This document shows, piece after piece, positions 592 through 64,000 of a stretch of 64,000 nucleotides of DNA (the first letter of the stretch is position 1; the number at the start of each line of letters is the position of its first letter). The DNA comes from an uncultured Planctomycetia bacterium (lineage in GTDB: Bacteria; Omnitrophota; Gorgyraeia; Duberdicusellales; 4484-171), in NCBI GenBank assembly GCA_964635565.1, contig CAZWON010000006.1, forward strand, positions 10,837 through 74,836. Direction: 5' to 3'. The notes below the pieces were generated by a model that ran no database searches, was not told the DNA's origin, and worked only from the letters and a program-made list of their open reading frames with translations. A program made the position numbers and the translations under genes.

Positions 592-2883
592 TTAATTATT
601 CCATAACCCTTGATAGGTGAAATAAGCTTTTTTTAGCTGGCGCAGAAATGGTGAATGCTTACCATCTCCTTGAGAACATATGCCCAGCCACTCCTCATGC
701 ATATAGCCATCTAAAAAAGGACCGGCAAAAAGACCCTTTCGGTCATGATAGCTAGGCTCATACGCTTTCCACCATTCATCTAACCACTCAAAAGCAATCC
801 CACCAATAGCATTACCTGCGCCAAAACCACAAGAATTGTAATAAATATCCCACCAGGCATTACGATGATACTCAGCCTGATAATCTTCGCTTTCCTCCTC
901 GGTATAATTTTTATAATAGGAAGGAGCACCGTATTCTGTAATCATCGCAGGCTTATGAGCCACTCTTTTTACTTCATCCCATAAGTCCAAAAATCCATAG
1001 CTACCTCTATAGGCGTTTGTTCCAAAAATGTCTATATCAGGACAACACCGAGCAAAAATATCCAAGTACAATATGTCACCAGAAGCAATTGCTACAGGTC
1101 TTTTTAAAGGGTCAAGTTTTTTAATAAGTCGGGCAGCCTCATTGGCGAATTTAAAAAAACTCTCTGGCTTCTTATCAGCATTGCACCCTAAACCATAAAC
1201 ATTTTCATTGCCTAAAATCCACATAAGAACATAAGGTTCATCTTTGAACTCCTCTACCATCTCCTTTACACTCTCTAACATCTTCTTTTTCTCCCCTGTA
1301 TCATCATAATCAGTGCCTTTCTCCCAGGTTGCTCCGCTTCCCAAGGCATATTTACCTAAAAAATCACCCAGAAGTATATATATACCATATTTTTCATACA
1401 TTTGTCTAAATAGGCTCTTGTTCAACTTAAAGGGGTGATGATATACACGAATAGCATTTACTCCCATTTCCTTCATTAGTTTAAAATCTCCTACAGATTT
1501 CTCGTCCTTATCCTGAGTATTATCTCTGTCTTTATCTACCCAAGCCTCAAAAGGAGCATCAATTAACCCATTATTATTTGTATCTTGAGTGGTCCAGTTC
1601 TGCAATGTCCCCTCGTCAGGAGATTCTCCTACCCGGGTAGGAGCATAAGTTACTGCTTTAATTATAAAAGGCTCATTATCCACCAATAACTGCCAATCAC
1701 CATCTTCATATCTTAGGAGTTTAACTTTATCTCCTCCTCTTACTTCCACTACCTTTTGTGTCTTTCTTTTCTTAAGTTTATTATTGTATAAACATAACTT
1801 TTTTAAAAAAGACCTCTTAACCAATCTACCCGGATTAACAATAAACTCATCATTTCTTATATCGTGGTCAAAACCATTCACCACCTCAATATAAGCATCC
1901 TCAAGGTAAAGATTTAACTCAGGATATTTTCTTAAAAGATATTTAATTCTATAAAGGGCTACCTTGCCTATATACCACGGTGTCTGCCAGTATGTCCATC
2001 CTACCGCATGAGGAAAATGTACGACCACCGCATAATAAGCTTTTATTGCCTGTTTGATTAAACCACTCCTTTCTAAAATATCTCCAATATAAAACTGTCT
2101 TACTCCTTGGGGCTCACCAGCTATATTCCACTTATAAAAAGCACGGGCTAAGTCTCTTGAATTAAGTATCTTCCAGTGATCAAGAGAAAACAATTCCTTC
2201 TTTATTTTGACAAAATTAGGGTCAAATTTAAGAGAACTGGTATTAGGATAAATCCCCTCGCCTACTGCCTTAGAGAGACCTATTGGATCCTCGATTATAT
2301 ATTTATAATCTTTTCTACCTATACCTACAAATTTACCATACTTAGCATAGTTTACAGGAAACTCTTCTCCTTCGTCATAAAGCTTAACTTTAGTAATAAC
2401 TATTTTTTCTTTTTTTTCCTCTTCAATGATTTTCCCTGTCTCTAACTTCTTCAAGGTAATTTCGGCCTTCTCTTTTATAGACCAAAACCACCCCCGAGGA
2501 TCCCATGCCTGGGCAAAAGGATATTTTTCTATCACTTTACGAAACACTTCTTTTGCCTCTTTAAGCTTTCCCTCCCGCATAAGAGCCTCGCCCTTAATAA
2601 AGTAACAAATAGCAACATCATTCATTACCTTATAAAAACTCTCCTTATCTTGGGGAGGGAAATTATTTAAAGTTTCAGCAAGTTTATCTGCTTCGTAAGA
2701 AAATTTGTCAATACAGGCTTTGGTTAAGGAGTAAACTTCACTAAAATTACGCTTGCCTAATTCTGACCAAGCTTTACTTACATACTCATAAGATGCCACC
2801 TCACTGCAAAATACAAATTTCAAACTCCAAAATGCAAAAATGCATATCAAAATGCAAAATTTTAATTTTGTTTTTTTTATCAT
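592..2883 (-). CDS. Secreted clan GH-A (TIM-barrel) glycoside hydrolase, GH2/GH5-like, with an N-terminal TPR-like region
   Basis: N-terminal signal peptide. Motifs NAIRVYHHP, WILGNENVYG (acid/base NE) and MITEYG (nucleophile TE-G) are typical of clan GH-A. It sits directly upstream of a sugar ABC importer. Confidence 0.55.
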   Translation of the reverse strand: MIKKTKLKFCILICIFAFWSLKFVFCSEVASYEYVSKAWSELGKRNFSEVYSLTKACIDKFSYEADKLAETLNNFPPQDKESFYKVMNDVAICYFIKGEALMREGKLKEAKEVFRKVIEKYPFAQAWDPRGWFWSIKEKAEITLKKLETGKIIEEEKKEKIVITKVKLYDEGEEFPVNYAKYGKFVGIGRKDYKYIIEDPIGLSKAVGEGIYPNTSSLKFDPNFVKIKKELFSLDHWKILNSRDLARAFYKWNIAGEPQGVRQFYIGDILERSGLIKQAIKAYYAVVVHFPHAVGWTYWQTPWYIGKVALYRIKYLLRKYPELNLYLEDAYIEVVNGFDHDIRNDEFIVNPGRLVKRSFLKKLCLYNNKLKKRKTQKVVEVRGGDKVKLLRYEDGDWQLLVDNEPFIIKAVTYAPTRVGESPDEGTLQNWTTQDTNNNGLIDAPFEAWVDKDRDNTQDKDEKSVGDFKLMKEMGVNAIRVYHHPFKLNKSLFRQMYEKYGIYILLGDFLGKYALGSGATWEKGTDYDDTGEKKKMLESVKEMVEEFKDEPYVLMWILGNENVYGLGCNADKKPESFFKFANEAARLIKKLDPLKRPVAIASGDILYLDIFARCCPDIDIFGTNAYRGSYGFLDLWDEVKRVAHKPAMITEYGAPSYYKNYTEEESEDYQAEYHRNAWWDIYYNSCGFGAGNAIGGIAFEWLDEWWKAYEPSYHDRKGLFAGPFLDGYMHEEWLGICSQGDGKHSPFLRQLKKAYFTYQGLWNN

Positions 2884-16737: not shown

Positions 16738-16999
16738 AGCGCCTCCCTTAAAAATTTAGAAATTGAATCTTATCACAAACTTATTCTTTCTTCAACCTAA
16801 AATTTACTCTCTGTTATTGCAACATAAAAATATCACCTTTTTTGCAAAATAAGTATGCATATTCTAATTCCAGAACTTTTTTCTAACCGCGTAGGTTAGA
16901 ACGGTAACGCCTGTAACAACATTGGCTTTCTTTATAACAGGCTTTCCATAAATATTTGTATTTACAATCAATTGCCATTAGTGTTAGAATATTCCCATT

Positions 17000-19865: not shown

Positions 19866-19932
19866 CGGAGAGTTTAGCGGATAGGGATTAGTTTATTTTT
19901 AGCGGTTAGCGGATAGAAAAAGCTGTTGACTG
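19866..19932. repeat. Convergent intergenic spacer with TAGCGGATAG-type direct repeats
   Basis: The sequence agatagcggagagtttagcggataggg...tagcggttagcggatag lies between the lptG stop and the alr stop. The reverse complement of tagcggata recurs at 60650..60660. Confidence 0.5.
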
Positions 19933-21149: not shown

Positions 21150-21200
21150 TACTTTGATATAAGCTATGAACTATGAGATAATTTTCTATTGGTTAATCCC
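21150..21200. repeat. Copy of the intergenic box element AGCTATGAACTATGAGATAATTTTCTATTGGTTAA
   Basis: It shares an exact 16-mer, agctatgaactatgag, with 60574..60589. About 35 nt in total are near-identical. Located 108 nt upstream of the alr start. Confidence 0.7.
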
Positions 21201-31999: not shown

Positions 32000-32030
32000 A
32001 CCGCTAAGAGCTAATTTTCTATGCTCTAAC
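32000..32030. repeat. Copy of the GAGCTAATTTTCTAT box element between ispD and ispF
   Basis: The sequence gagctaattttctatgctctaac sits about 94 nt upstream of the ispF start. It is preceded by the ACCACTG...CAGTGGT inverted repeat at 31922..31955. Confidence 0.55.
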
Positions 32031-39767: not shown

Positions 39768-39844
39768 AATTTCCTCCTCTTACTTATTAAAAGTTAAAGA
39801 ATTAATAACCTGCATTTTATAGCCCTTAGTTTATAGTTTATATC

Positions 39845-39890
39845 TTAACGAGTTTAATATGGACAATGAACTAAAAGCTATAAGCTAATT
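39845..39890. repeat. Degenerate copy of the box element (AAGCTATAAGCTAATTTTTATTCC)
   Basis: Lies between the mcsB stop and the clpC start, about 105 nt upstream of the clpC start. Confidence 0.45.
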
Positions 39891-44320: not shown

Positions 44321-45773
44321 TATTTTGGGGTTTTAAAAGAGGAAACAAAATAACATCTCTTATAGAAGACTGATCAAGAAAAAGCATAATAAGACGGTCT
44401 ATCCCAATACCTAATCCTGCTGCAGGAGGCATTCCATGCTCTAATCCCACGAGAAAATCCTCATCAATTTTTTTAGGTAATTCTTCTTCCTGCTTAATTT
44501 GTTCTAACAATCTTTTTCTCTGCTCAATAGGGTCATTAAGCTCAGAGTAACTGTTGGCTATTTCCATTCCCCCAATAAAAAGCTCAAACCGTTCTAATAT
44601 ATAGGGATTATCTTTTTTTGACTTTGCCAAGGGGGCTGTCCAGCTAAAAAAATCGATAACGAATACGGGTTTATCTAAAGGGTATTTTTTTTCAATAAGC
44701 TCTTCAGTTATATTTATAAGCTGTGTCCGAGAAAGTTGCTGTATTGATAAGTTTAACTTTCTACATATCTTATCACACACGGTATCTTGGTCATCTTCAG
44801 GGAAAACACCAAACTCTTCCTTAAAAAGCTCAGCAAAAGAAATCCTCAGCCAGGGAGGAGCAAAATCTATCTGTTTTCCTTGATATTTTAGGTTTAAAGA
44901 CAATTCTAACTTATCTAAAAGAAAAAGAAATAACTCTTCACATAAATTCATCATATATTCATAATTCTGATAGGCGCAGTAAGCCTCCAGCATAGTGAAC
45001 TCAGGAGAATGGCGCACAGAAAATCCCTCATTACGAAAATTTTTATTTATTTCAAAAACTCTATCAAATCCTCCTACGAGAAGTCGTTTTAAGTAAAGCT
45101 CAGGAGCAATGCGTAAATAAACATCTATATCAAAAGAATTATGATGAGTAACAAAGGGTGCGCCACTTGCTCCTCCAGGAATAGTCTGTAAAATAGGAGT
45201 TTCTACTTCAATATAGTCTTTCTTGTGAAAAAATTCTCTCATAGAATTAATAATTAAAGGACGCCTGAAGAATATCTGTCGTACCGAGGCATTAGAAATT
45301 AAATCCAAGTATCGCTGACGATATCTTATCTCTACATCTTTAAGGCCATGCCATTTCTCAGGAAGAGGCCTTAATGATTTAGCTAAAAGTTTCAATTCCT
45401 TAACTAAAATTGTAGGTTCTCCTGTTTTAGTTTTAAAAAGTTCTCCCTTCACTCCTACAATATCACCTACATCAATTTCTTTAAAAAGTTCATAGTCATC
45501 TTTTAAAATGTCTTTTCTCAAATAAAGCTGAGCTTTTGCAGATACATCGCTTATATGGGCAAAACTTGACTTACCATGTTCGCGTTTCGCAATAACTCTT
45601 CCTGCAGTGAAAACTTCCTTATTCTCCTTAAAATCTTTAAATATATCCTTTATATAAGAACCCTTGGGGAAAAAAGTTTCTTTATAAGGGTTACCATAAT
45701 GTGTACTGATTTTCTCTAATTTCTTTACGTTAACCATCGCTAAGATTATATAAGATTTGGCAGAAACTGTCAA
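44310..45773 (-). CDS. lysS: Lysine--tRNA ligase (class II)
   Basis: Class II motifs. Anticodon-binding OB fold N-terminus. GLGIGIDRLIM motif 3. Confidence 0.9.
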   Translation of the reverse strand: MTVSAKSYIILAMVNVKKLEKISTHYGNPYKETFFPKGSYIKDIFKDFKENKEVFTAGRVIAKREHGKSSFAHISDVSAKAQLYLRKDILKDDYELFKEIDVGDIVGVKGELFKTKTGEPTILVKELKLLAKSLRPLPEKWHGLKDVEIRYRQRYLDLISNASVRQIFFRRPLIINSMREFFHKKDYIEVETPILQTIPGGASGAPFVTHHNSFDIDVYLRIAPELYLKRLLVGGFDRVFEINKNFRNEGFSVRHSPEFTMLEAYCAYQNYEYMMNLCEELFLFLLDKLELSLNLKYQGKQIDFAPPWLRISFAELFKEEFGVFPEDDQDTVCDKICRKLNLSIQQLSRTQLINITEELIEKKYPLDKPVFVIDFFSWTAPLAKSKKDNPYILERFELFIGGMEIANSYSELNDPIEQRKRLLEQIKQEEELPKKIDEDFLVGLEHGMPPAAGLGIGIDRLIMLFLDQSSIRDVILFPLLKPQNIDD

Positions 45774-50629: not shown

Positions 50630-51478
50630 TTAATCTTTACGATAGTATTTTTTCCATTCTCTCTCTAAATCCTCGATAGTATTAAAATAGTTTGCGTAAG
50701 AAGTGCGCAATGCCTCCTCTATGCTTTTACCATCACGTAACTGACGACAAAAATCTGTAAATCTCTTATTCCCATATTTCTCAATTAGGAAGCCTACCAG
50801 TGATACTGCCTCTAAATAGTAAAGATTAATAAGGTTTTTGCCTGTCATAATAAGAACTAAGGGAATACCGTTATCATTGGTATAACGGACATATATTTTA
50901 TCAGTAGACTTTATATTTCTTATGTCCATTTTCATCATATCACGCAGAGAAAGCAATGTTTTCTTTCTAAATGTATCATTTATTATATCCTCTATTGCGT
51001 CTCTCTTTGATTTTTCTTCCCACTGGGCAATTCCTTCATCAAGCCACAGAGGGATAAAGCTTGTAAACCCTACGAAATCTCTAAACATAAGGTGAGTAAT
51101 CTCATGAGGTAAAATGGAATCAAGGAATCCTTTACCCCTAAAATAACCCATAATTATCTTTTTGGTATAATCCGCCATACCATGAGACCAGTTAGGCATA
51201 TTACTTGCTTTAAGATAAGATTGGTGACTGGGATAGATGTATATCCTTACTCTTTTATCCCACAGCCAGAACTTCGAATAACGTTCATAACCTAAATCCC
51301 GGGCAATATCTATATAATATTTTTCTGCACAGGAGAGAACTTCTTGAGCAAAGGATAAATGCTGAGGATAATAATACACGATAAAATGTGTTCCTTTAAG
51401 TCGAGAAAAATCATCCTCTGCAAAAAGGAGAGAGTTAAAACTTAAAAAGAAAAGAATAAAAACTATTATCCTCTTCAT
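50630..51478 (-). CDS. Secreted peptidase-MA-like zinc metalloprotease
   Basis: Signal peptide. HEITH followed by WLDEGIAQW, which matches the Peptidase_MA_2 pattern HExxH ... W.xEG.A. Confidence 0.55.
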   Translation of the reverse strand: MKRIIVFILFFLSFNSLLFAEDDFSRLKGTHFIVYYYPQHLSFAQEVLSCAEKYYIDIARDLGYERYSKFWLWDKRVRIYIYPSHQSYLKASNMPNWSHGMADYTKKIIMGYFRGKGFLDSILPHEITHLMFRDFVGFTSFIPLWLDEGIAQWEEKSKRDAIEDIINDTFRKKTLLSLRDMMKMDIRNIKSTDKIYVRYTNDNGIPLVLIMTGKNLINLYYLEAVSLVGFLIEKYGNKRFTDFCRQLRDGKSIEEALRTSYANYFNTIEDLEREWKKYYRKD

Positions 51479-52687
51479 TTATCTAACCATAATATTTATT
51501 TGAAAAATAGGAAGGAGCATTGCCAGCACAATAAAACCTACAATTGAACCTATAAAAAGAATCATTATGGGTTCTAAAACAGTAGTGAAAACCTTTGTTC
51601 CTTCTTCTAATTCTTCCTCATAAATTGTGGCTAATTCTCCTAATGTCTCGTCCAACCTGCCTGATTCTTCTCCAATAGAAATCAAACTCGTAACAAAAGG
51701 AGGAAACATTTTTGACTGCCCCAAAGATGTTCCCAGCGATGCGCCATCTTCTAACTCTTTTATACTTTTCAAAAACTCACTCTTTATAACCTCATTATTC
51801 AAGATAGGAATGACAAGATTTAACCCTCTTAGTATAGGGATTCCACTTTTTATTAGAATTTCTAAGGTCCTACTTAAAAGGGCTATATCCTTTTTAAAAA
51901 CAAAATCTTTTAATACAGGAATACGTAACTTTAAAATACTTAAAAAAACCCTAACCTCTTTTCTCTTTCTCTGCCGAAGATAAATAAGAAGAAATACACA
52001 TAAAGAAATTACTATAAGGGGCCATTTTTCTTTTAGGAGAGTACTTAAAGAAATTAGAATACGTGTAGGTAAAGGAAGTTGGGAACCTAATTCAGAAAAA
52101 ATATTCATAAGGCGAGGGACCACAAAAGAAAGCATAAATATCACTGTTCCCACCCCTACTAATAACATGATTATAGGATAAACCAAAGCAATTTTTACTT
52201 TAGAAAATATATCTGCTTGCTTCTGACGATAATTTGCAATCCTTAATAAAACCTCCTCTAATTTACCACTATCCTCTCCTGCTTTTACCATAGAAGTATA
52301 AAAATTAGAAAATACCATAGGAAATTTGGCTAATGCAGAAGAGAAACTCTGGCCTTCTTTTATCTCGGAATGCAATTTTAGAACAACTCTCTTAAAATAA
52401 CTATTTTGCATCTGGTGAGAAATTATTTCCAAAGCTCTTAGGATAGGAACCCCTGCTTTAATAAGAATAGCTATCTGTCTCGTAAATACTGTAATTGTGC
52501 GAAAACTTACCCTTTTAAATAAAACTCTTTTAGAAGGAATATCTTTAAGAACTTTTTCTTCTAATCTTACAGGAAAATATCCCATTTCTTCTATTTTCTT
52601 AAGTGCTGATTCTTTGTTAGATGCTTCTATTTCTCCTTCAACTACTGTCTGGGGGTCAGTTTTTGCACGATAATAATAGATAGCCAT
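51479..52687 (-). CDS. gspF: Type II secretion / type IV pilus platform protein GspF/PilC
   Basis: Two GspF repeats. Three TM segments. Length 402 aa. Confidence 0.85.
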   Translation of the reverse strand: MAIYYYRAKTDPQTVVEGEIEASNKESALKKIEEMGYFPVRLEEKVLKDIPSKRVLFKRVSFRTITVFTRQIAILIKAGVPILRALEIISHQMQNSYFKRVVLKLHSEIKEGQSFSSALAKFPMVFSNFYTSMVKAGEDSGKLEEVLLRIANYRQKQADIFSKVKIALVYPIIMLLVGVGTVIFMLSFVVPRLMNIFSELGSQLPLPTRILISLSTLLKEKWPLIVISLCVFLLIYLRQRKRKEVRVFLSILKLRIPVLKDFVFKKDIALLSRTLEILIKSGIPILRGLNLVIPILNNEVIKSEFLKSIKELEDGASLGTSLGQSKMFPPFVTSLISIGEESGRLDETLGELATIYEEELEEGTKVFTTVLEPIMILFIGSIVGFIVLAMLLPIFQINIMVR

Positions 52688-52696
52688 CTATTCTCC

Positions 52697-52785
52697 TTCT
52701 TAGCTCATAGCTGTTAGCTCATAGCTCATATTTTTAAGCAAGGAAAGAGCTAAAGAATGAGCTATGAGCTATTCCATTATTCTTT
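52697..52785. repeat. Perfect 14-bp inverted repeat (AGCTCATAGCTCAT / ATGAGCTATGAGCT) plus box element between gspE and gspF
   Basis: Arms at 52716..52729 and 52757..52770 with a 27-nt loop. Followed by gagctattccattattc. A related element lies at 60470..60625. Confidence 0.75.
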
Positions 52786-52787
52786 TA

Positions 52788-54896
52788 TTATTTCTCTTCC
52801 CTAACAAAATAGTTTATTCGTGTTCTTTCACTTCCTGTAAGGTCCAAAAAACAAATACCTATCTCATATCTATCTATTTCCTCAGCAGGTTTAGACCAGA
52901 CAACTTTAGCTAAACATACAATAGGGTCTTTACCATCAGGTAACTCCATATTAACCTCTAAGATTGAACCTATGGGGATTTCTTCAGGAGCAATAAAAGC
53001 AACACCTCCCGCACTGATATTTTTTGTCGTAGTAAATTTATCCCATAAATATCCTTTTTTGGTAAGTTCCTCTTTTGATTTTATAATACGATAAAGAATA
53101 CGAATACGGGCATCTAATCTTTTAAAAGCCCGCTGTTCTAAAAAAATACTGGCTTCTCTTAAAGAAGTCTTTTCTTCATAAAGAAACCTCTTATCTTCAC
53201 TTGATACTACTCTCATAACCTCTTCAGGGGTGGTTATTCCTTCCATAACTTTATACCAACCATCTTGCCTTAAAGTATTCATACCTCTTTGAATAGCAAT
53301 CTTTTTTATTTCCTCTGAAGGAGCTCTTTCTATTACTAAATTTCTAATTACCTCGTCCATTAAAAGAATCTCATATATACCTGTTCTACCCAGATAACCC
53401 GTAAAATTGCATTTCTCACAGCCTCTACCTTTAAAAATTCTTAACTCTTCTGGTGAGGTTAATGACAAATCTTGTGCAATTTGGTTTTTAAGTTCAACGG
53501 ATAACTCTTTATCGTCCTCTTTACAATGAGGACAAATTACTCGCACCAATCTCTGAGCAATGAACGCTTCAATACTTGAGGAAACAAGATAAGGTTCTAT
53601 CCCAACATCAATTAACCTAGCTACCCCACTAGCAGAATCTTTAGTATGAAGAGTAGAAAACACCAAATGGCCTGTTAAAGCCATTCTTATGGCAATCTCT
53701 GCGGTCTCTAAGTCGCGTACCTCTCCTACCATAATAATATCAGGATCATGCCTTAAAATACTACGTAACCCACGGGCAAAATCTAAACCTATATCTGGCG
53801 CTACTTGTATCTGAGTAATACCTTTGAGTTCATATTCAATGGGGTCCTCAATAGTAATAATCTTTCTATCGCGGGTATTAAGTTTGCTTAAGCAAGCATA
53901 AAGAGTTGTGGTCTTACCACTTCCTGTAGGGCCAGTAATAAAAATAATACCGTTGGGTTTTGAGATGAGTCTCTCTACAATCTTTAAATCATTATCAGAA
54001 AACCCTAATCTTTCTAAACTGAAAAGCATTTTTGTAGGAAGAATTCTAATCACCATGCTTTCTCCATAAGGAGTAGGAAGGGTAGAAATTCTTAAATCTA
54101 AATTCTGCTCCCGCGTCTTAACTATTGTACGACCATCCTGAGGAAGCCGTTTTTCTACAATATTGAGATTGCACATTATTTTTATACGGGAAATAATGGG
54201 TAGAATAAATTTCTTTACTTCTTTAGAAATATTGGCATCGTACAATACTCCATCAATACGATAACGAATAGAAACCTCTCCTCGGTAAGGTTCAATATGA
54301 ATATCGGTAGCTCTTCTTTTATAAGCTTCAAATATTATCTGATTAACTAACTTCATTATAGAAGCATCTTCGGCTAACTCTTCTATATCTTCTATTTCTT
54401 TTACCGTAAAATCTTTCGGTTTGGTAGAGAGAGAAATTTTATCCACGGTATCTGCTCCTAAACCATAATGACGTTTTAAACTCTCATAAATATCCTCCTC
54501 TAAGGAAAGTTTCATTTCTATATTACATCCCAAGTGAATCATCAACTCATCCTGGGTCTTTATATTAAAAGGATAGGCAACTGCGATAACTAAAGTATTG
54601 TTTTTCTTAAGTTGCAAAGGGAAAAAGTGATAATAAAAAGCAATGCGTGCCGATACTTTCTTTAATGCTTCTTTATCTAAAGAGAGATTATTCAAATCCA
54701 CTACTTCTAAAGCTAATTCTTCAGCTAAAGCATTTAAAGCTGTTTTTTTATCAACGATTCCTTTTTTAGAAATAGCCAAGATAAAACTTTCTTTAGTAGA
54801 TGCTATTTCTTTCGCAACCTCCTCTGCCACTTCAGAAGAAATTACTCCTCTTTTAACAAGAATGCTCTTAATTTGTGTATCATATCTTCCTGCCAT
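52788..54896 (-). CDS. gspE: Type II secretion ATPase GspE with a C-terminal PilZ domain
   Basis: T2SSE_N N-terminal domain. Walker A GPTGSGKTT. Tetracysteine CPHC ... CEKC. The C-terminal ~125 aa carry PilZ motifs RAFKR (RxxxR) and NISAGG (D/NxSxGG). Confidence 0.85.
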   Translation of the reverse strand: MAGRYDTQIKSILVKRGVISSEVAEEVAKEIASTKESFILAISKKGIVDKKTALNALAEELALEVVDLNNLSLDKEALKKVSARIAFYYHFFPLQLKKNNTLVIAVAYPFNIKTQDELMIHLGCNIEMKLSLEEDIYESLKRHYGLGADTVDKISLSTKPKDFTVKEIEDIEELAEDASIMKLVNQIIFEAYKRRATDIHIEPYRGEVSIRYRIDGVLYDANISKEVKKFILPIISRIKIMCNLNIVEKRLPQDGRTIVKTREQNLDLRISTLPTPYGESMVIRILPTKMLFSLERLGFSDNDLKIVERLISKPNGIIFITGPTGSGKTTTLYACLSKLNTRDRKIITIEDPIEYELKGITQIQVAPDIGLDFARGLRSILRHDPDIIMVGEVRDLETAEIAIRMALTGHLVFSTLHTKDSASGVARLIDVGIEPYLVSSSIEAFIAQRLVRVICPHCKEDDKELSVELKNQIAQDLSLTSPEELRIFKGRGCEKCNFTGYLGRTGIYEILLMDEVIRNLVIERAPSEEIKKIAIQRGMNTLRQDGWYKVMEGITTPEEVMRVVSSEDKRFLYEEKTSLREASIFLEQRAFKRLDARIRILYRIIKSKEELTKKGYLWDKFTTTKNISAGGVAFIAPEEIPIGSILEVNMELPDGKDPIVCLAKVVWSKPAEEIDRYEIGICFLDLTGSERTRINYFVREEK

Positions 54897-54946
54897 ATTT
54901 TTATTTATTTTTTACATAACTTATTGTTAATCAAAACAATATGTAA

Positions 54947-55606: not shown

Positions 55607-57013
<1,407 letters not shown>

Positions 57014-57027
57014 TTAATAACCAATTT

Positions 57028-57090
57028 ATAGCTTATGGTTTTTTAGTAGAAACTAAAAAGTTAAACCATAAGCTAAATTTTATTTGCTAT
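57028..57090. repeat. 13-bp perfect hairpin (TAGCTTATGGTTT / AAACCATAAGCTA) plus box element between atpG and atpD
   Basis: Arms at 57029..57041 and 57063..57075. Followed by aattttatttgctatttact, which is shared with 60590..60612. Confidence 0.7.
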
Positions 57091-57104
57091 TTACTACAAG
57101 TATT

Positions 57105-57959
57105 TTACTTCTGTGCTTTCCGCTCAAAAATCATTCTTGCTGCAAATAATTCTCTCATACTTCTATCGGTTAATTCATGACGGAGACGAAAATATTTATA
57201 TTTCAGTTTCTCATCCAGTTCTTCAATTTTATGAGTGCAATCTTCTAAATGCATAAATCGAGCAGCAAACTCAGCCAATCTACTCATCATAAGAATTTCA
57301 TATATTCTTTTTACTATCCAGAGATAAATTAAATATTCCACTACTTGCTCTATATAAGACTCCCAAACAAATCCATAAATATCTATTTGTTTGTTACCCT
57401 CTTTAAGGTGACCACAAGGTAGAAGGGTTTCTATCTCTACTCGCTGAACAGCTAAAGAGTACGCTTTAGGATAAATTATCTTAACTTTACCTATACTACC
57501 TTTTATCACTTCTTTTAATATATAACTCTGAAGAGCTACTGCCTGTTCACCAACATAGTCTTCTTTAATTCCTTCCATATATACACAATTTATCCCTCTT
57601 TCTCGCACATAGATTCTTCCTCTCTCTCCTACAACAATAAGCCTTCCTTTCTGTTTTGATAGCTCAATAAATGCTTTATTTATTACCTGCATATTAAGTC
57701 CCCCTAAAAGCCCTGCGTCAGAAGTGATAGCAATAACTCCTAAAAGGTTGCTTGAAGGTGTAATAAAGGGATGGGATATATCTTTTAAATCTATACTGCC
57801 AAGAAATTCTTCTACTACCCGAGAAAACTTCTCAAAAGGATGAACTTTTCCTTCAAAAGCATAAAATTGAGAAATGGCGATCCCTTTAAGAACTTTAAGA
57901 AGCTCGGCTAACCCTTTGTAGAAATCCCTATCCCTTTTTACATCAGAAATAAAAGCCAT
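57105..57959 (-). CDS. atpG: F-type ATP synthase gamma subunit (divergent)
   Basis: Length 284 aa. C-terminal helix LAEFAARFMHLEDCTHKIEEL aligns with the gamma EHAARMxAM block. Sits between alpha and beta. Confidence 0.7.
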   Translation of the reverse strand: MAFISDVKRDRDFYKGLAELLKVLKGIAISQFYAFEGKVHPFEKFSRVVEEFLGSIDLKDISHPFITPSSNLLGVIAITSDAGLLGGLNMQVINKAFIELSKQKGRLIVVGERGRIYVRERGINCVYMEGIKEDYVGEQAVALQSYILKEVIKGSIGKVKIIYPKAYSLAVQRVEIETLLPCGHLKEGNKQIDIYGFVWESYIEQVVEYLIYLWIVKRIYEILMMSRLAEFAARFMHLEDCTHKIEELDEKLKYKYFRLRHELTDRSMRELFAARMIFERKAQK

Positions 57960-57973
57960 TTATTATTATTTAC

Positions 57974-59461
57974 CTAACCCTTCTTACTAAAATACTTCTG
58001 TAAGAAAGAATATAATACTTCCTGAATTTTATCAGTAACAATCTTCTGTTCTCGTAATCTAGAAATAACTTCAGGATATTCTTTCCTAAGAGCATACAGA
58101 CAATACTGCTTAAAATCCCTGATTTCTGAAGAAGAAAGATTATCCAGTATTCCCAAACTTAAGGCATAAAGATAAATTATCTGCTCCTCAATCTCAATAG
58201 GAGCATTTTTAGGCTGGATAAGAAGATGAGTTATTATTTCTCCTCTTTTTAAAGAACGTTCCGCCTCTTTAGAAAGACTGGTAGCACGTAGCTGTGTCAT
58301 CTGAAGAAGCTCTTTGTACTGAAGATACCCCAAACGCAAGTTTCTACTTAAAGCTTTCATTGCTGGCCATTGTGCTTTACTGCCAATACGGGAGACAGAA
58401 AGACCTAAATCAATTGCTGGTCTAAATCCTTTATTAAAGAGTGAGGTGCTAAAATATATTTGGCCATCGGTCATAGAAATAATATTTGTAGAAATATATC
58501 CGGTGACATCCCCATGTTGAATCTCTACAATAGGGAAAAAAGTCATTGAACCCCCTCCTAATTCAGGGCGAAGTTGACCTGCTCTTTCCATAAGTTGAGA
58601 ATGAATATAGAAAATGTCTCCCGGATAAGCTTCTCTACCTGGCGCTCTTCCTAAGAGCAAAGATATCTGCCTGTAGACCCAGGCATGACGGGTCAAATCA
58701 TCAAAAACAACAAGAACATCTTTTCCTTTATGCATAAAATATTCTCCCAGCATGCAAGCGGTATAAGGAGCAAGGTATTGTTCTCCTGCTGAAGTAGAAG
58801 CAACACCGCTTACTACAATTGTATAGGAAATAGCATCTTTTTCTTTTAGAATATCCAGAATCTTAACTAAATTAGAATAAGGTTTGCCAATGCAACAATA
58901 TATACACACTACATTTTTACCTTTCTGATTAAGAATAGTATCTATAGCTACGGTGGTTTTACCTGTTAATCTATCTCCAATAAGTAGCTGGCGCTGGCCT
59001 TTACCAATGGGGATAGTAGCATCTATGGTAAGTATTCCTGTTTCAAGAGTTCTATCTACAGGAACCCTATCTAATACCCCAGGTGCATCTCTAAAAACAG
59101 GATATAATCTATCTGTTTTAATCTCTCCCAACCCGTCCTGAGGCTGACAAAGACTGTCTACTACTCTACCTAAGAAAGCTTCTCCCACAGGAAGCGATAG
59201 AAACTGACCTTTATTATAAACCTCTTCTCCTGCTTTTATATCTACAGCAGAACCTAAAACAAGAATCTGAACTTCATCTTCAACAAATCCAATGACTATG
59301 CCTTTAAGACCATTAAAAAATTCAACCATCTGACCATTAACACAACTAGGTATACCACGAGCAAAAACAATAAATTTCTGGACTGATTTTATAGTCCCTA
59401 CTTCACGAATATCTACAGAATAATTAATATTTTGGTTTAAGTTATTTATCCCTTCTTCCAT
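57974..59461 (-). CDS. atpA: F-type ATP synthase alpha subunit
   Basis: P-loop GDRLTGKTTVAIDTILNQ. Blocks LAPYTACMLGEYF, YRQISLLLGRAPGREAYPGD. Confidence 0.9.
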   Translation of the reverse strand: MEEGINNLNQNINYSVDIREVGTIKSVQKFIVFARGIPSCVNGQMVEFFNGLKGIVIGFVEDEVQILVLGSAVDIKAGEEVYNKGQFLSLPVGEAFLGRVVDSLCQPQDGLGEIKTDRLYPVFRDAPGVLDRVPVDRTLETGILTIDATIPIGKGQRQLLIGDRLTGKTTVAIDTILNQKGKNVVCIYCCIGKPYSNLVKILDILKEKDAISYTIVVSGVASTSAGEQYLAPYTACMLGEYFMHKGKDVLVVFDDLTRHAWVYRQISLLLGRAPGREAYPGDIFYIHSQLMERAGQLRPELGGGSMTFFPIVEIQHGDVTGYISTNIISMTDGQIYFSTSLFNKGFRPAIDLGLSVSRIGSKAQWPAMKALSRNLRLGYLQYKELLQMTQLRATSLSKEAERSLKRGEIITHLLIQPKNAPIEIEEQIIYLYALSLGILDNLSSSEIRDFKQYCLYALRKEYPEVISRLREQKIVTDKIQEVLYSFLQKYFSKKG

Positions 59462-59467
59462 TATTAT

Positions 59468-60193
59468 TTAAACTTCATTTATTAGCTGGCGTGCTCCTTC
59501 CTTTATCTTCCACTTCAAACTAGCATCAATTACTAAACTTCCTATATTAATTAATAAACCAGACAATAAAGAAACGTCTTTTTCCTTTATAAACTCTATG
59601 TTCTTGCCTATTTTTTCCTTTAACTTAGAAGAAATAACATCAAACTTACTATCATCAAGGTCAAAAGCGCTTTTTATTACTGCAAAGGAGGCATCTACAT
59701 TTTGAGAAATGCTCAATTTATCAATCCCTGCATGAATAAATTCATCCACTAAATGATTATGTAATATTAAACGGACCTCTTGGCTAAGTGCTTTATCCAA
59801 TAAACTAACTGCTTCCTCTATTGCCTTTTCTTTGATTTTTCTTTCCATTTCCAAAATAAGATTCTGGCGAGCTTTTTCTGCCTGTTTTATCATTTCTTCA
59901 CTTTCCTGGCGGGCCTTCTCAATAATCTTCTCTTTCTGGGCGTTAGCTGATTGCTGAATTGCTTGCTTAATCTTTTCTGCTTCTTCTTTTGCTTCAGAAA
60001 TTTTCTTCTGATACATCTGGTTTATCTCATCTAAACGTTTATCTACCTCTTCCTGTTTTTTCATGTAATCTCTGGTAAGAACATCTAAATGCTGTGTAGC
60101 AGAAGTTATGTTTTTGGATAAAACTTTTTTAAGCAAGAATACAAGAAAAGCAAATATAATAACCTGAAATACTATTAAAACTACAAGCAACAT
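59468..60193 (-). CDS. atpF: F-type ATP synthase subunit b fused to a delta (OSCP) C-terminal-domain-like region
   Basis: N-terminal TM and charged coiled coil (b-like). The C-terminal approximately 100 aa (DVSLLSGLLINIGSLVIDASLKWKI) resemble the delta C-terminal domain. No separate delta gene is present. Confidence 0.6.
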   Translation of the reverse strand: MLLVVLIVFQVIIFAFLVFLLKKVLSKNITSATQHLDVLTRDYMKKQEEVDKRLDEINQMYQKKISEAKEEAEKIKQAIQQSANAQKEKIIEKARQESEEMIKQAEKARQNLILEMERKIKEKAIEEAVSLLDKALSQEVRLILHNHLVDEFIHAGIDKLSISQNVDASFAVIKSAFDLDDSKFDVISSKLKEKIGKNIEFIKEKDVSLLSGLLINIGSLVIDASLKWKIKEGARQLINEV

Positions 60194-60251
60194 CTACTCC
60201 TCCTATTTTATTTTCATTGATACCTAATTACTTATATATAGGGTATAATCT

Positions 60252-60467
60252 TTAAGGAGTAAGAATCTGAAAAACAATCAGCATCGCAATAATAGCTAAG
60301 CTCTGGGCAAATACAAGACCTACCACCATTGCAGTAAAAATCTTAGGAGCAGCAGAGGGATTTCTCCCTAAGGCATTGATACTGGCAAATATTCCTGCAG
60401 CAAAAACAGCACACGGTCCTAAAATGCATAACCCAAAAATTACAATCAGTGCTAAATTTCTACTCAT
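60252..60467 (-). CDS. atpE: F-type ATP synthase c subunit, with Gln at the conserved carboxylate position
   Basis: Two-helix hairpin. The ALGRNP loop aligns with the RQP/RNP loop. The residue 20 positions after the loop Arg is Q55 (CAG at 60305..60303), where E/D is expected. Confidence 0.75.
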   Translation of the reverse strand: MSRNLALIVIFGLCILGPCAVFAAGIFASINALGRNPSAAPKIFTAMVVGLVFAQSLAIIAMLIVFQILTP

Positions 60468-60469
60468 AT

Positions 60470-60625
60470 TATTAGCTCAGGGCTCTTAGCTCTTGGCTCA
60501 TAGAGTAGCTCTTAGCTCATAACTCTTAGTTCCTCGCTCTTCGTTCTTGTTTAATATCAACTATGAGCTAACAGCTATGAACTATGAGCTAATTTCTATT
60601 CGCTAAACGCTATTTACTCTACCCC
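60470..60625. repeat. Composite intergenic repeat element (imperfect long hairpin plus GAGCTAATTTCTATTCGCTAAACGCTATTTACT box) between atpC and atpE
   Basis: AGCTCTTAGCTCAT ... ATGAGCTAACAGCT inverted arms. The 30-mer gagctaacagctatgaactatgagctaa nearly matches the reverse complement of 52701..52730. Box copies occur at five other loci. Confidence 0.75.
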
Positions 60626-60686
60626 ACTATCCTATACACGATACGCTCAACGCACAGCGAGATATGGTTTATCCGCTATACGCTCT

Positions 60687-60920
60687 TTACGGTTCTTCCA
60701 CAATTATTGTCGCAACGTTCTTCTCTAATTTTACCACACCCCTCTTAATTATAAATGAATTTTTATTATCAATACTGATATGGCCTCTTATTAGACGAGA
60801 GATGATATTTTTATGAAAAGGGGTAATTTCAAATACCCCCTGCTCACCAGGTAAAATAATACTCTTTGCCTTCCCTTCAAAAATTGTCTTCTGAGGGGAA
60901 ATAATCATAAATTCTAACAT
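60687..60920 (-). CDS. atpC: F-type ATP synthase epsilon subunit, N-terminal beta-sandwich domain only
   Basis: MLEFMIISPQKTIFEGKAKSIILPGEQGVFEITPFH matches the epsilon N-terminal domain. At 77 aa it lacks the C-terminal helical hairpin. Confidence 0.7.
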   Translation of the reverse strand: MLEFMIISPQKTIFEGKAKSIILPGEQGVFEITPFHKNIISRLIRGHISIDNKNSFIIKRGVVKLEKNVATIIVEEP

Positions 60921-61826: not shown

Positions 61827-64000
61827 CTACTGTAAAACTGTTGAAACAATGGGTGCGTCCATGCCACCGAATTTAGCCTCAAACAGAGCCTGAAGAATTC
61901 TTAAAACACCCTCTATAGTATCTGTTTTCTTCCTAATTGCCTTAATTGTAGGGGACTCACTGAGTTTCTCTTCAAGTATCTCACTAATATCATAACCCTG
62001 ACCAGCTGCTAACTCAGTTAATTTATCTGTAATCTCGTTTAAAGTGCTAGTAACTATAGGGCTTGCTCCTTGGTTTGCAATAATCGAAGGAAGTTCTTCT
62101 ACAGATTCCTGTAAATTCTTTAAAGTAATTGCAATACTTACTCCGTCTTCGCTTCCAATAGTAGCTTCTAATGCTTTTACTAAATCTAAAGTTTTCTTAG
62201 CAGCTCGTTCAGCCTCAGGAGCAGCAGAGGCTAACCCTGCAATAGTAGTTATAGACATTTCCTCTACTGAACCAGAACCTGTAACTAATCCTCCAGTAGT
62301 CTGTTCACTAACAGTATAGGTATAAGCCTTTCCAGGGGTAAAGCGTGTATCTGCATTAAATTCAAAAATATATAAACCAGGAGTTGTCTCCGTCATTACC
62401 CAATCCTTTACAATAGATTGGTTATCCCAACTGTATATATTCACCATAGGATAAAGTCCGCTGGGTCCTTGAACCTGCAAAGTAATGGCTTCTCCGCTTA
62501 AAGCAGGATTAGGTGATACTGTTGCTTTCCAAGAATATTTCTTAGCTGTTGCTTCTAATTCCTCACCTGCAGCTACTGCCTGTTCCGCACCTGCTTGGAG
62601 TTGCTCAATAGCCTCTGTGGTGCGTTCTTCAAAACTTGTTAAGGTTTCATCTACAGCGCTAACCATTTCATCGGTCTTTGTCTCAATAATAGTTTTTTGC
62701 TCTTCCATCTTCTGGTCAATAAGGTCAGTCTGGTCTTGTAGTGTCTGTTGTATTTCTGCATTCACCTCTGATATAGGTTTATCCAAAACTGCATTTACAG
62801 TATCCTGAACATCCTGTAATTTTGTTTCCGCAGTAATAGTAAAGGAATCTGGCGTTTTAAAGTGGGCACCACTGGCATTAGTAATATCTGTAATAGTTGT
62901 ATATACTTTCCCTGCAATAAGAGTTGTAGGATTCCATATAGAACTAAAGAAACCTGCAGGATCAGGGCTTGTATCAACTAAATGGGCAATTTCTTGTTCA
63001 GTTTCTGGGTCATAGATATATACATCTGCCTGAATACCACCACTTACTACAAATCCATCTCGTTCAAGCCAGCTACTTACACTGAGAGTATCTGTCGTTG
63101 GGTCGTAGGCAAAATCAGAGTAAGCCCGCCAAATATGGATAGCTGTTGTTTCCATAAAAATAGTCTCGTTCTCTGTCCCTACTAAAGGCTCATCTCTATC
63201 CAAAAGGAAACTAATCTGCTTATCACCATAACCAGTCTTTGACCACACGAGCGTCCAGAAACCATAAGGAAGCTCAACAGTACAAGGTGAACCTAAAGGT
63301 GCGCCAGGATTACCTGGCATCTCTGAGGTCTGCCAAACATCCCCTTTATCGGAAGAGCCATCAACGGTAAGTTGAGATAAGTTCTCATTAGTTAAAAGAT
63401 CCCTTATGTTAAAAGTCACAGAATAATAGTCTATAATAAAGTTATCATCGGAGGTATCGTTAACAGTAACATCACGAATATCAGAAACTCTCACCTTTAC
63501 AGTGGTTGAACGATCATCAGGAATTGTCCAAGCATAAGAATTAGGGGAAATCGTATTATCATAGGAAGAAACAATAGTATGAAGATCGGTATTAAAATTA
63601 TCTTTAGAATACTCAATATTTACTAAAGGAATTGAACCTTGTGTAGTTTCCCACGTAATATTGTGTTCTTCTCTTGTAACCCACCGTTCTCCACCATTAG
63701 GAGAAGTAATATGTAAGATTCCTCTCACAATAGAACAATCACTATCAGAGGCATCAAAAGCATCAGAATCAGTTGCACTCATCACTCTTACTCTAATTGT
63801 CTCAATCCTACTCTCTCCTTGAGGAGGAGCATTAGGAACTTTCCAGATATAACTTCCTGTATTAGGGGTTGAAGAAACAATGGCATAATCAAAAGTCAAT
63901 CCACTATCTTTAGAATAATCTAATCTTACATTATCTACGGTTCCTACACAACTCCAACTAACTGTGTAATCCTCACCTACAGTAAGTTCTTCTCCGCCAT
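61827..64000 (-). CDS. Large Ser/Thr/Asp-rich surface or secreted repeat protein, 5'-truncated by the window edge
   Basis: The track start at 63899 is a TTG. Own reading shows the frame stays open to 64000. Repeated YSKD..T.....N.....Y.W.IP units. A central Q/E-rich coiled-coil segment. Confidence 0.5.
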   Translation of the reverse strand, partial: GGEELTVGEDYTVSWSCVGTVDNVRLDYSKDSGLTFDYAIVSSTPNTGSYIWKVPNAPPQGESRIETIRVRVMSATDSDAFDASDSDCSIVRGILHITSPNGGERWVTREEHNITWETTQGSIPLVNIEYSKDNFNTDLHTIVSSYDNTISPNSYAWTIPDDRSTTVKVRVSDIRDVTVNDTSDDNFIIDYYSVTFNIRDLLTNENLSQLTVDGSSDKGDVWQTSEMPGNPGAPLGSPCTVELPYGFWTLVWSKTGYGDKQISFLLDRDEPLVGTENETIFMETTAIHIWRAYSDFAYDPTTDTLSVSSWLERDGFVVSGGIQADVYIYDPETEQEIAHLVDTSPDPAGFFSSIWNPTTLIAGKVYTTITDITNASGAHFKTPDSFTITAETKLQDVQDTVNAVLDKPISEVNAEIQQTLQDQTDLIDQKMEEQKTIIETKTDEMVSAVDETLTSFEERTTEAIEQLQAGAEQAVAAGEELEATAKKYSWKATVSPNPALSGEAITLQVQGPSGLYPMVNIYSWDNQSIVKDWVMTETTPGLYIFEFNADTRFTPGKAYTYTVSEQTTGGLVTGSGSVEEMSITTIAGLASAAPEAERAAKKTLDLVKALEATIGSEDGVSIAITLKNLQESVEELPSIIANQGASPIVTSTLNEITDKLTELAAGQGYDISEILEEKLSESPTIKAIRKKTDTIEGVLRILQALFEAKFGGMDAPIVSTVLQ

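Follow-up and report, generated by a model that had tools for sequence, protein, structure and literature searches.

Heptameric simple-sequence repeats (SSRs) are over-represented in many bacteria, where they are mainly intergenic (PMC4692102, PMC4679880), and slippage of the polymerase is the origin generally assigned to them (Mrazek 2007, as cited in PMC4692102 and PMC4679880). The short tandemly repeated repetitive (STRR) sequences of heterocystous cyanobacteria are heptanucleotide repeats (Mazel 1990; Mrazek 2007, both as cited in PMC4692102 and PMC4679880), and no function has been established for the heptamer repeats of cyanobacteria, Xanthomonas, Beggiatoaceae and Bacteroidetes (PMC4692102, PMC4679880). 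Here we describe an inverted repeat that lies between the secretion genes gspE and gspF in a 64,000-nt stretch (the window) of the metagenomic contig CAZWON010000006.1, from an organism whose closest GspF homologs are named Candidatus Omnitrophica/Omnitrophota. Its arms are tandem heptamers, and the repeat is likely one member of a dispersed family of palindromic elements built from heptanucleotide repeats, of the STRR or long-SSR kind, in which (TAGCTCA)n faces (TGAGCTA)n.

Several described systems are close enough for comparison. In Xanthomonas, GGGAATC arrays form many convergent inverted pairs (Rehm et al. 2015, PMC4692102), and the same intergenic sites carry them in related species with variation in both length and sequence (PMC4692102). 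TAACTGA arrays are found beside start codons in marine Beggiatoaceae, cyanobacteria and Bacteroidetes (MacGregor 2015, PMC4679880). Repetitive extragenic palindromes (REPs) are single imperfect palindromes of ~35 nt that bear a GTAG or CGTC tag and are mobilised by RAYT transposases (PMC3733652, PMC8266576). Finally, the rRNA intervening sequence (IVS) of Coxiella, which carries an S23p open reading frame (ORF), forms a stem-loop that is excised by RNase III (PMC4990558).

On the plus strand of the window, AGCTCATAGCTCAT at 52716-52729 is followed by its reverse complement ATGAGCTATGAGCT at 52757-52770. A previous reading of these letters made without database searches (the sequence-only reading) had pointed out this perfect 14-bp inverted repeat with its 27-nt loop (52730-52756), and the sequence is as it was given there; one extra outer pair, T52715-A52771, makes the stem a perfect 15 bp. 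That reading had left out that both neighbouring genes are encoded by the minus strand, that the arms are made of heptamers and that the motif recurs in the window. The non-coding spacer comprises the 100 nt from 52688 to 52787 (minus strand), from the double stop TAA TAA of gspE to the start of gspF, and these limits, taken from the ORF map, are backed by end-to-end alignment of both flanking proteins with orthologs. In mRNA sense the spacer, together with the gspF start codon, reads UAA-AAGAAUAAUGGAA-[UAGCUCAUAGCUCAU]-27 nt-[AUGAGCUAUGAGCUA]-ACAGCUAUGAGCUAA-GAAGGAG-AAUAG-AUG, with the paired arms in brackets. The 5' arm (52757-52771, minus strand) is made of two heptamers, UAGCUCA UAGCUCA U, the loop on the same strand includes UAAAAAUAU, and the 3' arm belongs to an array of four units, UGAGCUA UGAGCUA ACAGCUA UGAGCUA (52701-52729, minus strand), detected with Tandem Repeats Finder (TRF) and by an inverted-repeat search. 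The 15-bp stem is formed by the 5' arm and the first two units of this array. Because both arms are tandem heptamers, a second pairing register is available to the short arm, a perfect 12 bp between 52701-52712 and 52760-52771 that uses the last two units of the 3' arm. The plus-strand letters are TAGCTCA TAGCTGT TAGCTCA TAGCTCA on the left (52701-52728) and TGAGCTA TGAGCTA on the right. TRF reported period-7 repeats in the spacer at 52701-52730 (4.3 copies, 82% matches) and at 52757-52772 (2.3 copies, 100% matches); the repeat is a tandem array of 7-nt units in at least three copies. The Shine-Dalgarno sequence of gspF, GAAGGAG (52693-52699, minus strand), is located 5 nt upstream of the ATG (52685-52687).

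The inverted repeat ranked first among all inverted repeats in the 64 kb. The 14-mer was found 12 times in the window when at most two mismatches were allowed, compared with 0.61 expected from dinucleotide shuffles, and 12 was reached in 0/100 shuffles. Likewise, three TAG triplets at a 7-nt period occurred 5 times on the plus strand and 7 times on the minus strand (0.27 and 1.02 expected from dinucleotide shuffles, respectively). The RNA fold predicted in mRNA sense had an energy of -28.7 kcal/mol (z = -2.5 to -2.8), which supports the stable stem proposed earlier within a co-directional and probably co-transcribed gene pair, and that of the plus strand had -31.0 kcal/mol (z = -3.4). The spacer was base-for-base the same in two independent assemblies, ENA ERZ1742239 and Logan SRR6823441 (L001 and L002), and is thus not an assembly artefact. 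A locus from a sister assembly (L060) was considered as a source of more sequence from the same genome and was rejected as a different organism (44% G+C vs 33%).

Sister elements were found by listing all spacers of at least 45 nt in the window, combined with motif and inverted-repeat searches. TAG-phased heptamers were present in seven spacers of the 64 kb, the gspE-gspF spacer and six others, and five of these six lie between co-directional housekeeping genes (atp, mcsB-clpC, ispD-ispF and tsaB-alr). Four of the elements, including the one at gspE-gspF, fold as hairpins (z from -2.6 to -5.0). The long sister hairpin at 60468-60600 (minus strand; -42.5 kcal/mol, z = -5.0) pairs about eight TAGNNNN units with about ten inverted units; it separates a gene resembling atp epsilon from one of 71 aa (probably the c subunit), and 6 nt remain between its end and the ATG. 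The spacer that separates the gamma-like from the beta-like gene of the ATP synthase has TAG/TAA-phased heptamers followed by a perfect 13-bp hairpin, TAGCTTATGGTTT / AAACCATAAGCTA, at 57029-57075 (minus strand; -27.5 kcal/mol, z = -4.4), the whole stretch covering 57002-57075. The mcsB-clpC spacer holds a TAG-phased heptamer stretch at 39768-39884 with a hairpin at 39810-39884 (minus strand; -23.7 kcal/mol, z = -2.6), the arms of which are UAGCUUU UAGUUCA and UAAACUA AGGGCUA. The remaining spacers contain a half element of direct heptamers only (tsaB-alr, 21156-21190, minus strand), a short related fragment, ATAGAAAATTAGCTCTTAGCGG, right after the ispD stop codon (ispD-ispF, 32000-32025, minus strand) and an array of TAGCGGN/TAGGGAT heptamers between convergent genes (19875-19925, plus strand). 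TAG is constant in phase across the elements and the other four positions of the unit vary. The copies at 60.5 kb and 21.2 kb have ~30 nt in common that extend past the arrays, which indicates copying of an element and not independent slippage. No further elements were seen in the extra 10 kb of contig past the left end of the window.

The repeat at gspE-gspF is thus intergenic and dispersed, with several loci in the 64 kb of this one genome. Given that hairpins of a scattered heptamer family are found in several operons, it is improbable that the one at gspE-gspF is a control element dedicated to secretion. The overall interpretation of the sequence-only reading was sustained for the stem and for the unusual length of the spacer and was not supported for the dedicated operon device, since the heptamer family occupies six other spacers of the window and forms hairpins at three of them, and also for attenuation, which is treated below.

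To place the junction among its orthologs, we compared the spacer with those of other Omnitrophota. A spacer is present at the gspE-gspF junction in three related lineages. It is 98 nt long in L123 (75% GspF identity) and 99 nt in L125 (74%), and each end carries units of the TAGCTCA type. The window and L123 agree exactly in the outer arm pair TAGCTCATAG/CTATGAGCTA (AUAGCUCAUAGCUC ... CUAUGAGCUAAGA) and in the loop stretch UAAAAAUAU, and the inner units that form the perfect stem of the window have diverged in L123. A hairpin of heptamer arms is predicted in the L123 spacer (-23.7 kcal/mol, z = -4.6), the fold of the L125 spacer is weak and indistinct from that of shuffled sequence (-22.8 kcal/mol, z = -0.7), and the stem registers differ between the window, L123 and L125. 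Three spacers with shifting heptamer registers give no trustworthy alignment for covariation. The 70% relative (L127/L128) has a spacer of 312 or 203 nt with other small hairpins and with an array of ACGCGAT-type heptamers immediately 5' of the Shine-Dalgarno sequence.

In a more distant set, the 26 Omnitrophota orthologs with an ATPase of the MshEN-T2SSE-PilZ type, spacers fell between -1 and 50 nt, except for three outliers that measured 97, 184 and 2038 nt; the median was ~14 nt and 11/26 spacers were 5 nt or shorter. The earlier remark that 100 nt is unusual at this junction was thus well founded, and the short spacers of the distant orthologs show that the long one is derived, by insertion or by expansion. 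At the 2038-nt junction a two-component system (histidine kinase and response regulator) has been inserted (L153, 1970-3994), so that gspE and gspF are not always neighbours. In other lineages the same junction holds unrelated heptamer arrays (NACGGGN, TGACGGA) or a hairpin of TCGGGG units. Elsewhere in the cluster, junctions of the relatives carry TAGCGNN heptamers, GTGACTTT octamers and GTATGACNNN units, and array-bearing junctions were located at 1352-1487 and 2883-3104 in L123, 1403-1563 and 2959-3104 in L125, and 60-160 and 8040-8200 in L127. From these sequences, junction content turns over fast between lineages. The element would have been gained or expanded at gspE-gspF in an ancestor of this Omnitrophota subclade, with later turnover by gain, loss and mutation of units, and the perfect 15-bp stem of the window would stem from locally homogeneous units.

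With STRRs and long SSRs the element has in common the 7-nt units, the short tandem arrays, the intergenic and dispersed location and the frequent presence in operons, for example at pecE-pecF in Anabaena. It differs in its units (TAGCTCA/TAGNNNN), in its host, Candidatus Omnitrophota, and in that the arrays are typically inverted pairs giving hairpins. The cyanobacterial STRR units include CCCCAGT, TTGGTCA and CAACAGT; with TAGCTCA as unit and an Omnitrophota host, membership of the narrow STRR family was rejected. The Xanthomonas repeats are also intergenic heptamers in inverted pairs able to form stem-loops, and they vary at the same junction as do those of the window, L123 and L125; however, they are G-rich and have been proposed to form G-quadruplexes, whereas the units described here are AT-rich and contain a stop codon. 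The TAACTGA repeats resemble them in being stop-codon heptamers a few nt upstream of start codons, in essential operons and with a patchy spread across phyla, but nearly all of them are direct and overlap or replace the ribosome-binding site, whereas the present arrays have an inverted orientation and leave a canonical Shine-Dalgarno sequence in place. REPs and bacterial interspersed mosaic elements (BIMEs) are likewise dispersed extragenic palindromes within operons. A REP or REP doublet (REPIN) was nevertheless rejected, as the arms are tandem heptamers, GGAA-UAGC precedes the stem and there is no GTAG tag. Compared with miniature inverted-repeat transposable elements (MITEs), the inverted arms are present and no direct duplication flanks the element; the copies share units, and at two loci ~30 nt of flank, and are not near-identical overall.

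The distribution of the motif was examined by scanning TAGYTCATAGCTNNTAGCTCA in one genome per species, which gave at least 120 stretches compared with a rough random expectation of ~9. Among the matches listed were Omnitrophota, Nitrospirota, Chloroflexota, Bacteroidota, Desulfobacterota, Planctomycetota, Gemmatimonadota, Aminicenantes, one cyanobacterium, Pseudomonas and others. These listed matches included at least 218 arrays and at least ~37 hairpin arrangements, several of them directly upstream of a Shine-Dalgarno sequence and ATG, and among them TAGCTCA arrays and hairpins recur in metagenome-assembled genomes (MAGs) of many phyla. GspF loci sampled without bias (0.5 Mb) contained 49 arrays of period 7; their units were of many other kinds and in no case TAGCTCA, indicating that TAGCTCA is lineage-dependent and not universal. 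Heptamer-repeat hairpins, known mainly from cyanobacteria, Xanthomonas and Beggiatoaceae, are hereby extended to Candidatus Omnitrophota, a phylum without an earlier description of them, in which the units hold the stop codon TAG in phase and the elements are lodged in housekeeping operons.

In the Aminicenantes MAG WVZO01, a ~97-nt TAGCTCA/TGAGCTA hairpin with a conserved loop was observed inside long ORFs, with one frame open throughout (L043 2332-2429; L044 1140-1237 and 4431-4528; L067 3227-3339; L071 6517-6614). By eye, the host ORFs look like genes for nonribosomal peptide synthetase adenylation domains (YKTGDL-like motif), and the copies within them may have spread by module duplication. 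In-frame palindromic insertions are known from Rickettsia, and the in-ORF elements of WVZO01 are similar.

In the 70% relative, two junctions of the same cluster of atp and type II secretion system (T2SS) genes contain PF05635 genes, which encode four-helix-bundle proteins (23S rRNA intervening-sequence protein, bAvd-like). Inverted tandem arrays of 7-9-nt units bracketed 13/13 of the PF05635 genes inspected, and the units vary from gene to gene and are complementary across each gene. Five of the 13 genes were retrieved by protein homology alone. The genes are located at L127 2482-2841, L128 1-297, L104 1138-1456, 5436-5834 and 7502-7879, L160 5219-5662, L065 1027-1413 and L094 729-1118, and in L209, L211, L212 (two genes) and L214 around 1501-1880. 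The flank-to-flank duplex energy was on average -62.6 kcal/mol (10/13 genes scorable) compared with -27.8 kcal/mol for 92 control genes (Mann-Whitney test, p = 3e-7), and at three of the genes (in L104, L065 and L094) the units were TAGCTCA/TGAGCTA. No description of a link between PF05635 and inverted arrays was found in the literature searched. Using jackhmmer, no PF05635-like ORF was detected in the window, and the extra 10 kb of contig past its left end held no PF05635 gene either. The element of the window resembles the 23S rRNA IVS of Coxiella and Leptospira in having an inverted-repeat stem around a loop, here of inverted tandem arrays pairing over 15 bp, and differs in that its loop is 27 nt without any four-helix-bundle or other ORF and in that it lies in an mRNA spacer instead of an rRNA.

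Several explanations compete with a dispersed repeat. The main idea of the sequence-only reading was a dedicated cis-regulator that sets the GspE:GspF ratio, as an attenuator/terminator or as a translational switch, and in its favour are the stable stem in mRNA sense, a spacer longer than in most orthologs and the retention of spacer and hairpin potential in the three related lineages. Other observations speak against such a device. The attenuation of read-through suggested earlier has no support: as in a Rho-independent terminator there is a stable stem-loop after a stop codon, but the 27-nt loop exceeds the 3-8 nt of a terminator, in mRNA sense the stem leads into ACAGCUAUGAGCUAAGAAGG, which contains no U-tract, and terminator and promoter scans called no site in the spacer. 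The canonical terminator seen on the same contig outside the window (L216, ~16770-16800), a GC-stem CCCCGTGCAT...ATGCACGGGG followed by T7, is different and shows that the organism has ordinary Rho-independent terminators. A switch that sequesters the Shine-Dalgarno sequence was rejected, since GAAGGAG and the AUG are unpaired in the minimum free energy (MFE) and centroid folds and are free in the alternative register too. Moreover, the motif is also present in unrelated operon junctions, 11/26 of the ortholog junctions are 5 nt or shorter, and stem register and sequence vary in the relatives with no clean compensatory pattern. Taken together this makes a dedicated regulator highly improbable. 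Another explanation is that the arrays are sites for a DNA- or RNA-binding protein that reads 7-nt units, the palindrome being two opposed arrays. This would account for a TAG phase that is kept while the other four positions are variable and for arrays close to start codons (at one locus 12 nt and at another 6 nt upstream of the ATG), and three heptamers make 21 bp, or two helical turns. Protein binding has also been proposed by MacGregor for the TAACTGA repeats (PMC4679880). However, the units differ widely among lineages and even between neighbouring junctions, so binding would need many specificities, no candidate binding protein was identified, and the canonical Shine-Dalgarno sequence is unlike the situation in Beggiatoaceae; we regard binding arrays as improbable.

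A further explanation is a functionless product of replication slippage and local inverted duplication that is tolerated because of its place in a spacer. Slippage is the origin generally given for heptameric SSRs (Mrazek 2007, as cited in PMC4692102 and PMC4679880), and the rapid turnover of units between relatives and the missing strand asymmetry in folding agree with it. On the other hand, position and arm sequence are kept over ~25% GspF divergence, two copies have non-repeat flanks in common and hairpin arrangements recur strongly in many phyla, and a mere by-product of slippage is for these reasons doubtful. The PF05635 genes lead to a further possibility, namely that the hairpin is a solo (MITE-like) version, lacking the gene, of the cassettes that carry one and that its stem is cut by RNase III, splitting the operon transcript. 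This refines the dispersed-repeat interpretation and does not exclude it. The bracketing of 13/13 genes with strongly paired flanks, the three genes with TAGCTCA/TGAGCTA units, the junctions of relatives in the same operon that hold nothing, arrays alone or arrays together with a PF05635 gene, and the RNase III excision of the Coxiella intervening sequence (PMC4990558) are all compatible with it. Yet no PF05635 gene is present in the window or the extra 10 kb, the 27-nt loop holds no gene remnant, no target-site duplication is evident, 15 bp is short for an RNase III stem, and either direction fits, genes entering existing hairpins or hairpins arising from gene cassettes. A solo cassette is thus unlikely at this locus. 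Extended to heptamer hairpins at large, the suggestion would be that they are the solo form of widespread, undescribed intervening-sequence cassettes at operon junctions of many phyla, the stems being RNase III sites at which polycistronic mRNAs are cut and the transcript of the small gene is released; this is quite unlikely as well. As the window and the extra 10 kb lack a PF05635 gene, we kept the cassettes out of the main conclusion. If the suggestion were true, STRR-like heptamer repeats and the very abundant four-helix-bundle genes would both be manifestations of a single mobile system, and if the link between PF05635 genes and arrays were to hold genome-wide it would offer a testable origin for repeats that have been functionally open since 1990. 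The association, if upheld, is of more interest than the hairpin itself.

For the dispersed heptamer repeat that we prefer, a possible effect in the RNA can be outlined. The element would be transcribed within the polycistronic type II secretion mRNA and would fold into a stable stem-loop a short way 5' of the gspF Shine-Dalgarno sequence, which stays free; ribosomes would then load on gspF at its own binding site, and its translation would not be by coupling. In REPs, BIMEs (for example at the malE-malF junction) and REPINs, a transcribed stem-loop protects the upstream mRNA and leads to differential expression. In the same way the stem could be a block to 3'-to-5' exonucleases or a target of a double-strand RNase, and the gspE and gspF segments of the mRNA would then no longer be tied to each other in their stability. 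By this analogy a REP-like effect on mRNA stability or processing would be the most likely consequence and one on the E:F ratio is plausible, and any RNA effect of the hairpin could easily be minor or absent. The element would then matter little to the secretion operon, as a passenger-type repeat that alters at most how stable the gspE and gspF messages are in relation to each other.

Some observations weigh against this interpretation. In the window and its relatives neither folding energies nor G.U counts consistently favour the sense strand, and given this absence of a consistent strand bias selection at the RNA level is not demonstrated and an element acting at the DNA level or a neutral one fits equally well. 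Among 23 hairpins from other phyla with co-directional flanks, the sense strand was favoured in 14 and the antisense strand in 9, with a mean difference of -2.5 kcal/mol, a comparison that depends on noisy ORF calls. The arms and the loop motif that are kept over ~25% protein divergence could mean a conserved function specific to this locus. Finally, the window belongs to an 84.7-kb metagenomic contig, and what is said of the dispersal of the family in this genome is based on no more than ~85 kb.

Other candidate features of the spacer were examined and set aside. No gathering-level match to Rfam was found in the whole window. The potC RNA motif (RF01751) was rejected at 27.2 bits against a gathering threshold of 44 bits (E = 0.0016-0.0033, 300-600 nt searched), the similarity being that of a generic hairpin with a pyrimidine-rich loop, and Rfam searches of a sister element gave only sub-threshold look-alikes of miRNA precursors. 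A frame of nine codons (AUG...UAA) within the 3' arm lacks conservation in L123 and L125 and was dismissed as a small ORF, and a 49-aa antisense ORF at 52764-52913 was considered mechanical.

The gene upstream of the spacer (52788-54896, minus strand) encodes a 702-aa secretion ATPase of the GspE/MshE type, supported by NCBIfam, with an N-terminal MshEN domain (Pfam, 2.4e-13), a T2SSE core (1.2e-131) and a C-terminal PilZ domain (4.4e-15). MshEN and PilZ are both families known as c-di-GMP-binding modules. The alignments of the ATPase to orthologs by BLAST reach through the PilZ region (to residue ~700), and both domains are listed in the ATPase gene calls of the three close relatives. The downstream gene (51479-52687, minus strand) encodes the 402-aa platform protein GspF (Pfam T2SSF, 2e-61; TIGR02120, 3.8e-107, under the curated cut-off). 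Matches to Pfam and NCBIfam in the operon include E, F, G, J, K, a PilM/PilN-like protein at the GspL position, and M. The operon fits a T2SSE-then-T2SSF pair with pseudopilins, that is a system similar to T2SS or type IV pili (T4P), and its subtype is uncertain because the scores are under the equivalog cut-offs. A gene for a Peptidase_MA_2 / M1-like metallopeptidase (50630-51478, minus strand) lies between gspF and gspG, and this position is kept in L123, L125 and L127.

Nearly all genes of the window are carried by a single strand. Directly upstream of TPR-gspE-gspF are genes for an F-type ATP synthase (55607-60700, minus strand), comprising a 241-aa protein that matches both the subunit b and the delta/OSCP families, alpha, a divergent gamma, beta, an epsilon-like gene of 77 aa and a gene of 71 aa, probably for subunit c. 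The synteny of ATP synthase and secretion genes is kept in the three related lineages (L123, L125 and L127), and the atpD-TPR junction of the window is only 27 nt. The 50-nt TPR-gspE spacer (54897-54946, minus strand) contains a small hairpin, ATTGTT...AACAAT inside TTACAT...ATGTAA, with the counterpart ATTGTTGT...ACAACAAT in the relatives (L123 3738-3787, L125 3729-3786). A perfect sigma-70 consensus (12/12; TTGACA, 17 nt, TATAAT) is located at 45745-45773 (minus strand), at one edge of the 276 nt that separate gspM from lysS; it probably marks the start of the lysS transcription unit and thus the end of the secretion operon. At 61827-64000 (minus strand) is the 3' end of a giant gene that runs past the window (4010 residues in the gene call of the contig); the part seen had no Pfam match and a single, very weak NCBIfam match, ZorA. 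A period-7/8 repeat of TTTTGCA at 2805-2860 (minus strand) falls in the first codons of a 763-aa glycosyl-hydrolase-like gene, in an apparent signal-peptide region, and is probably compositional.

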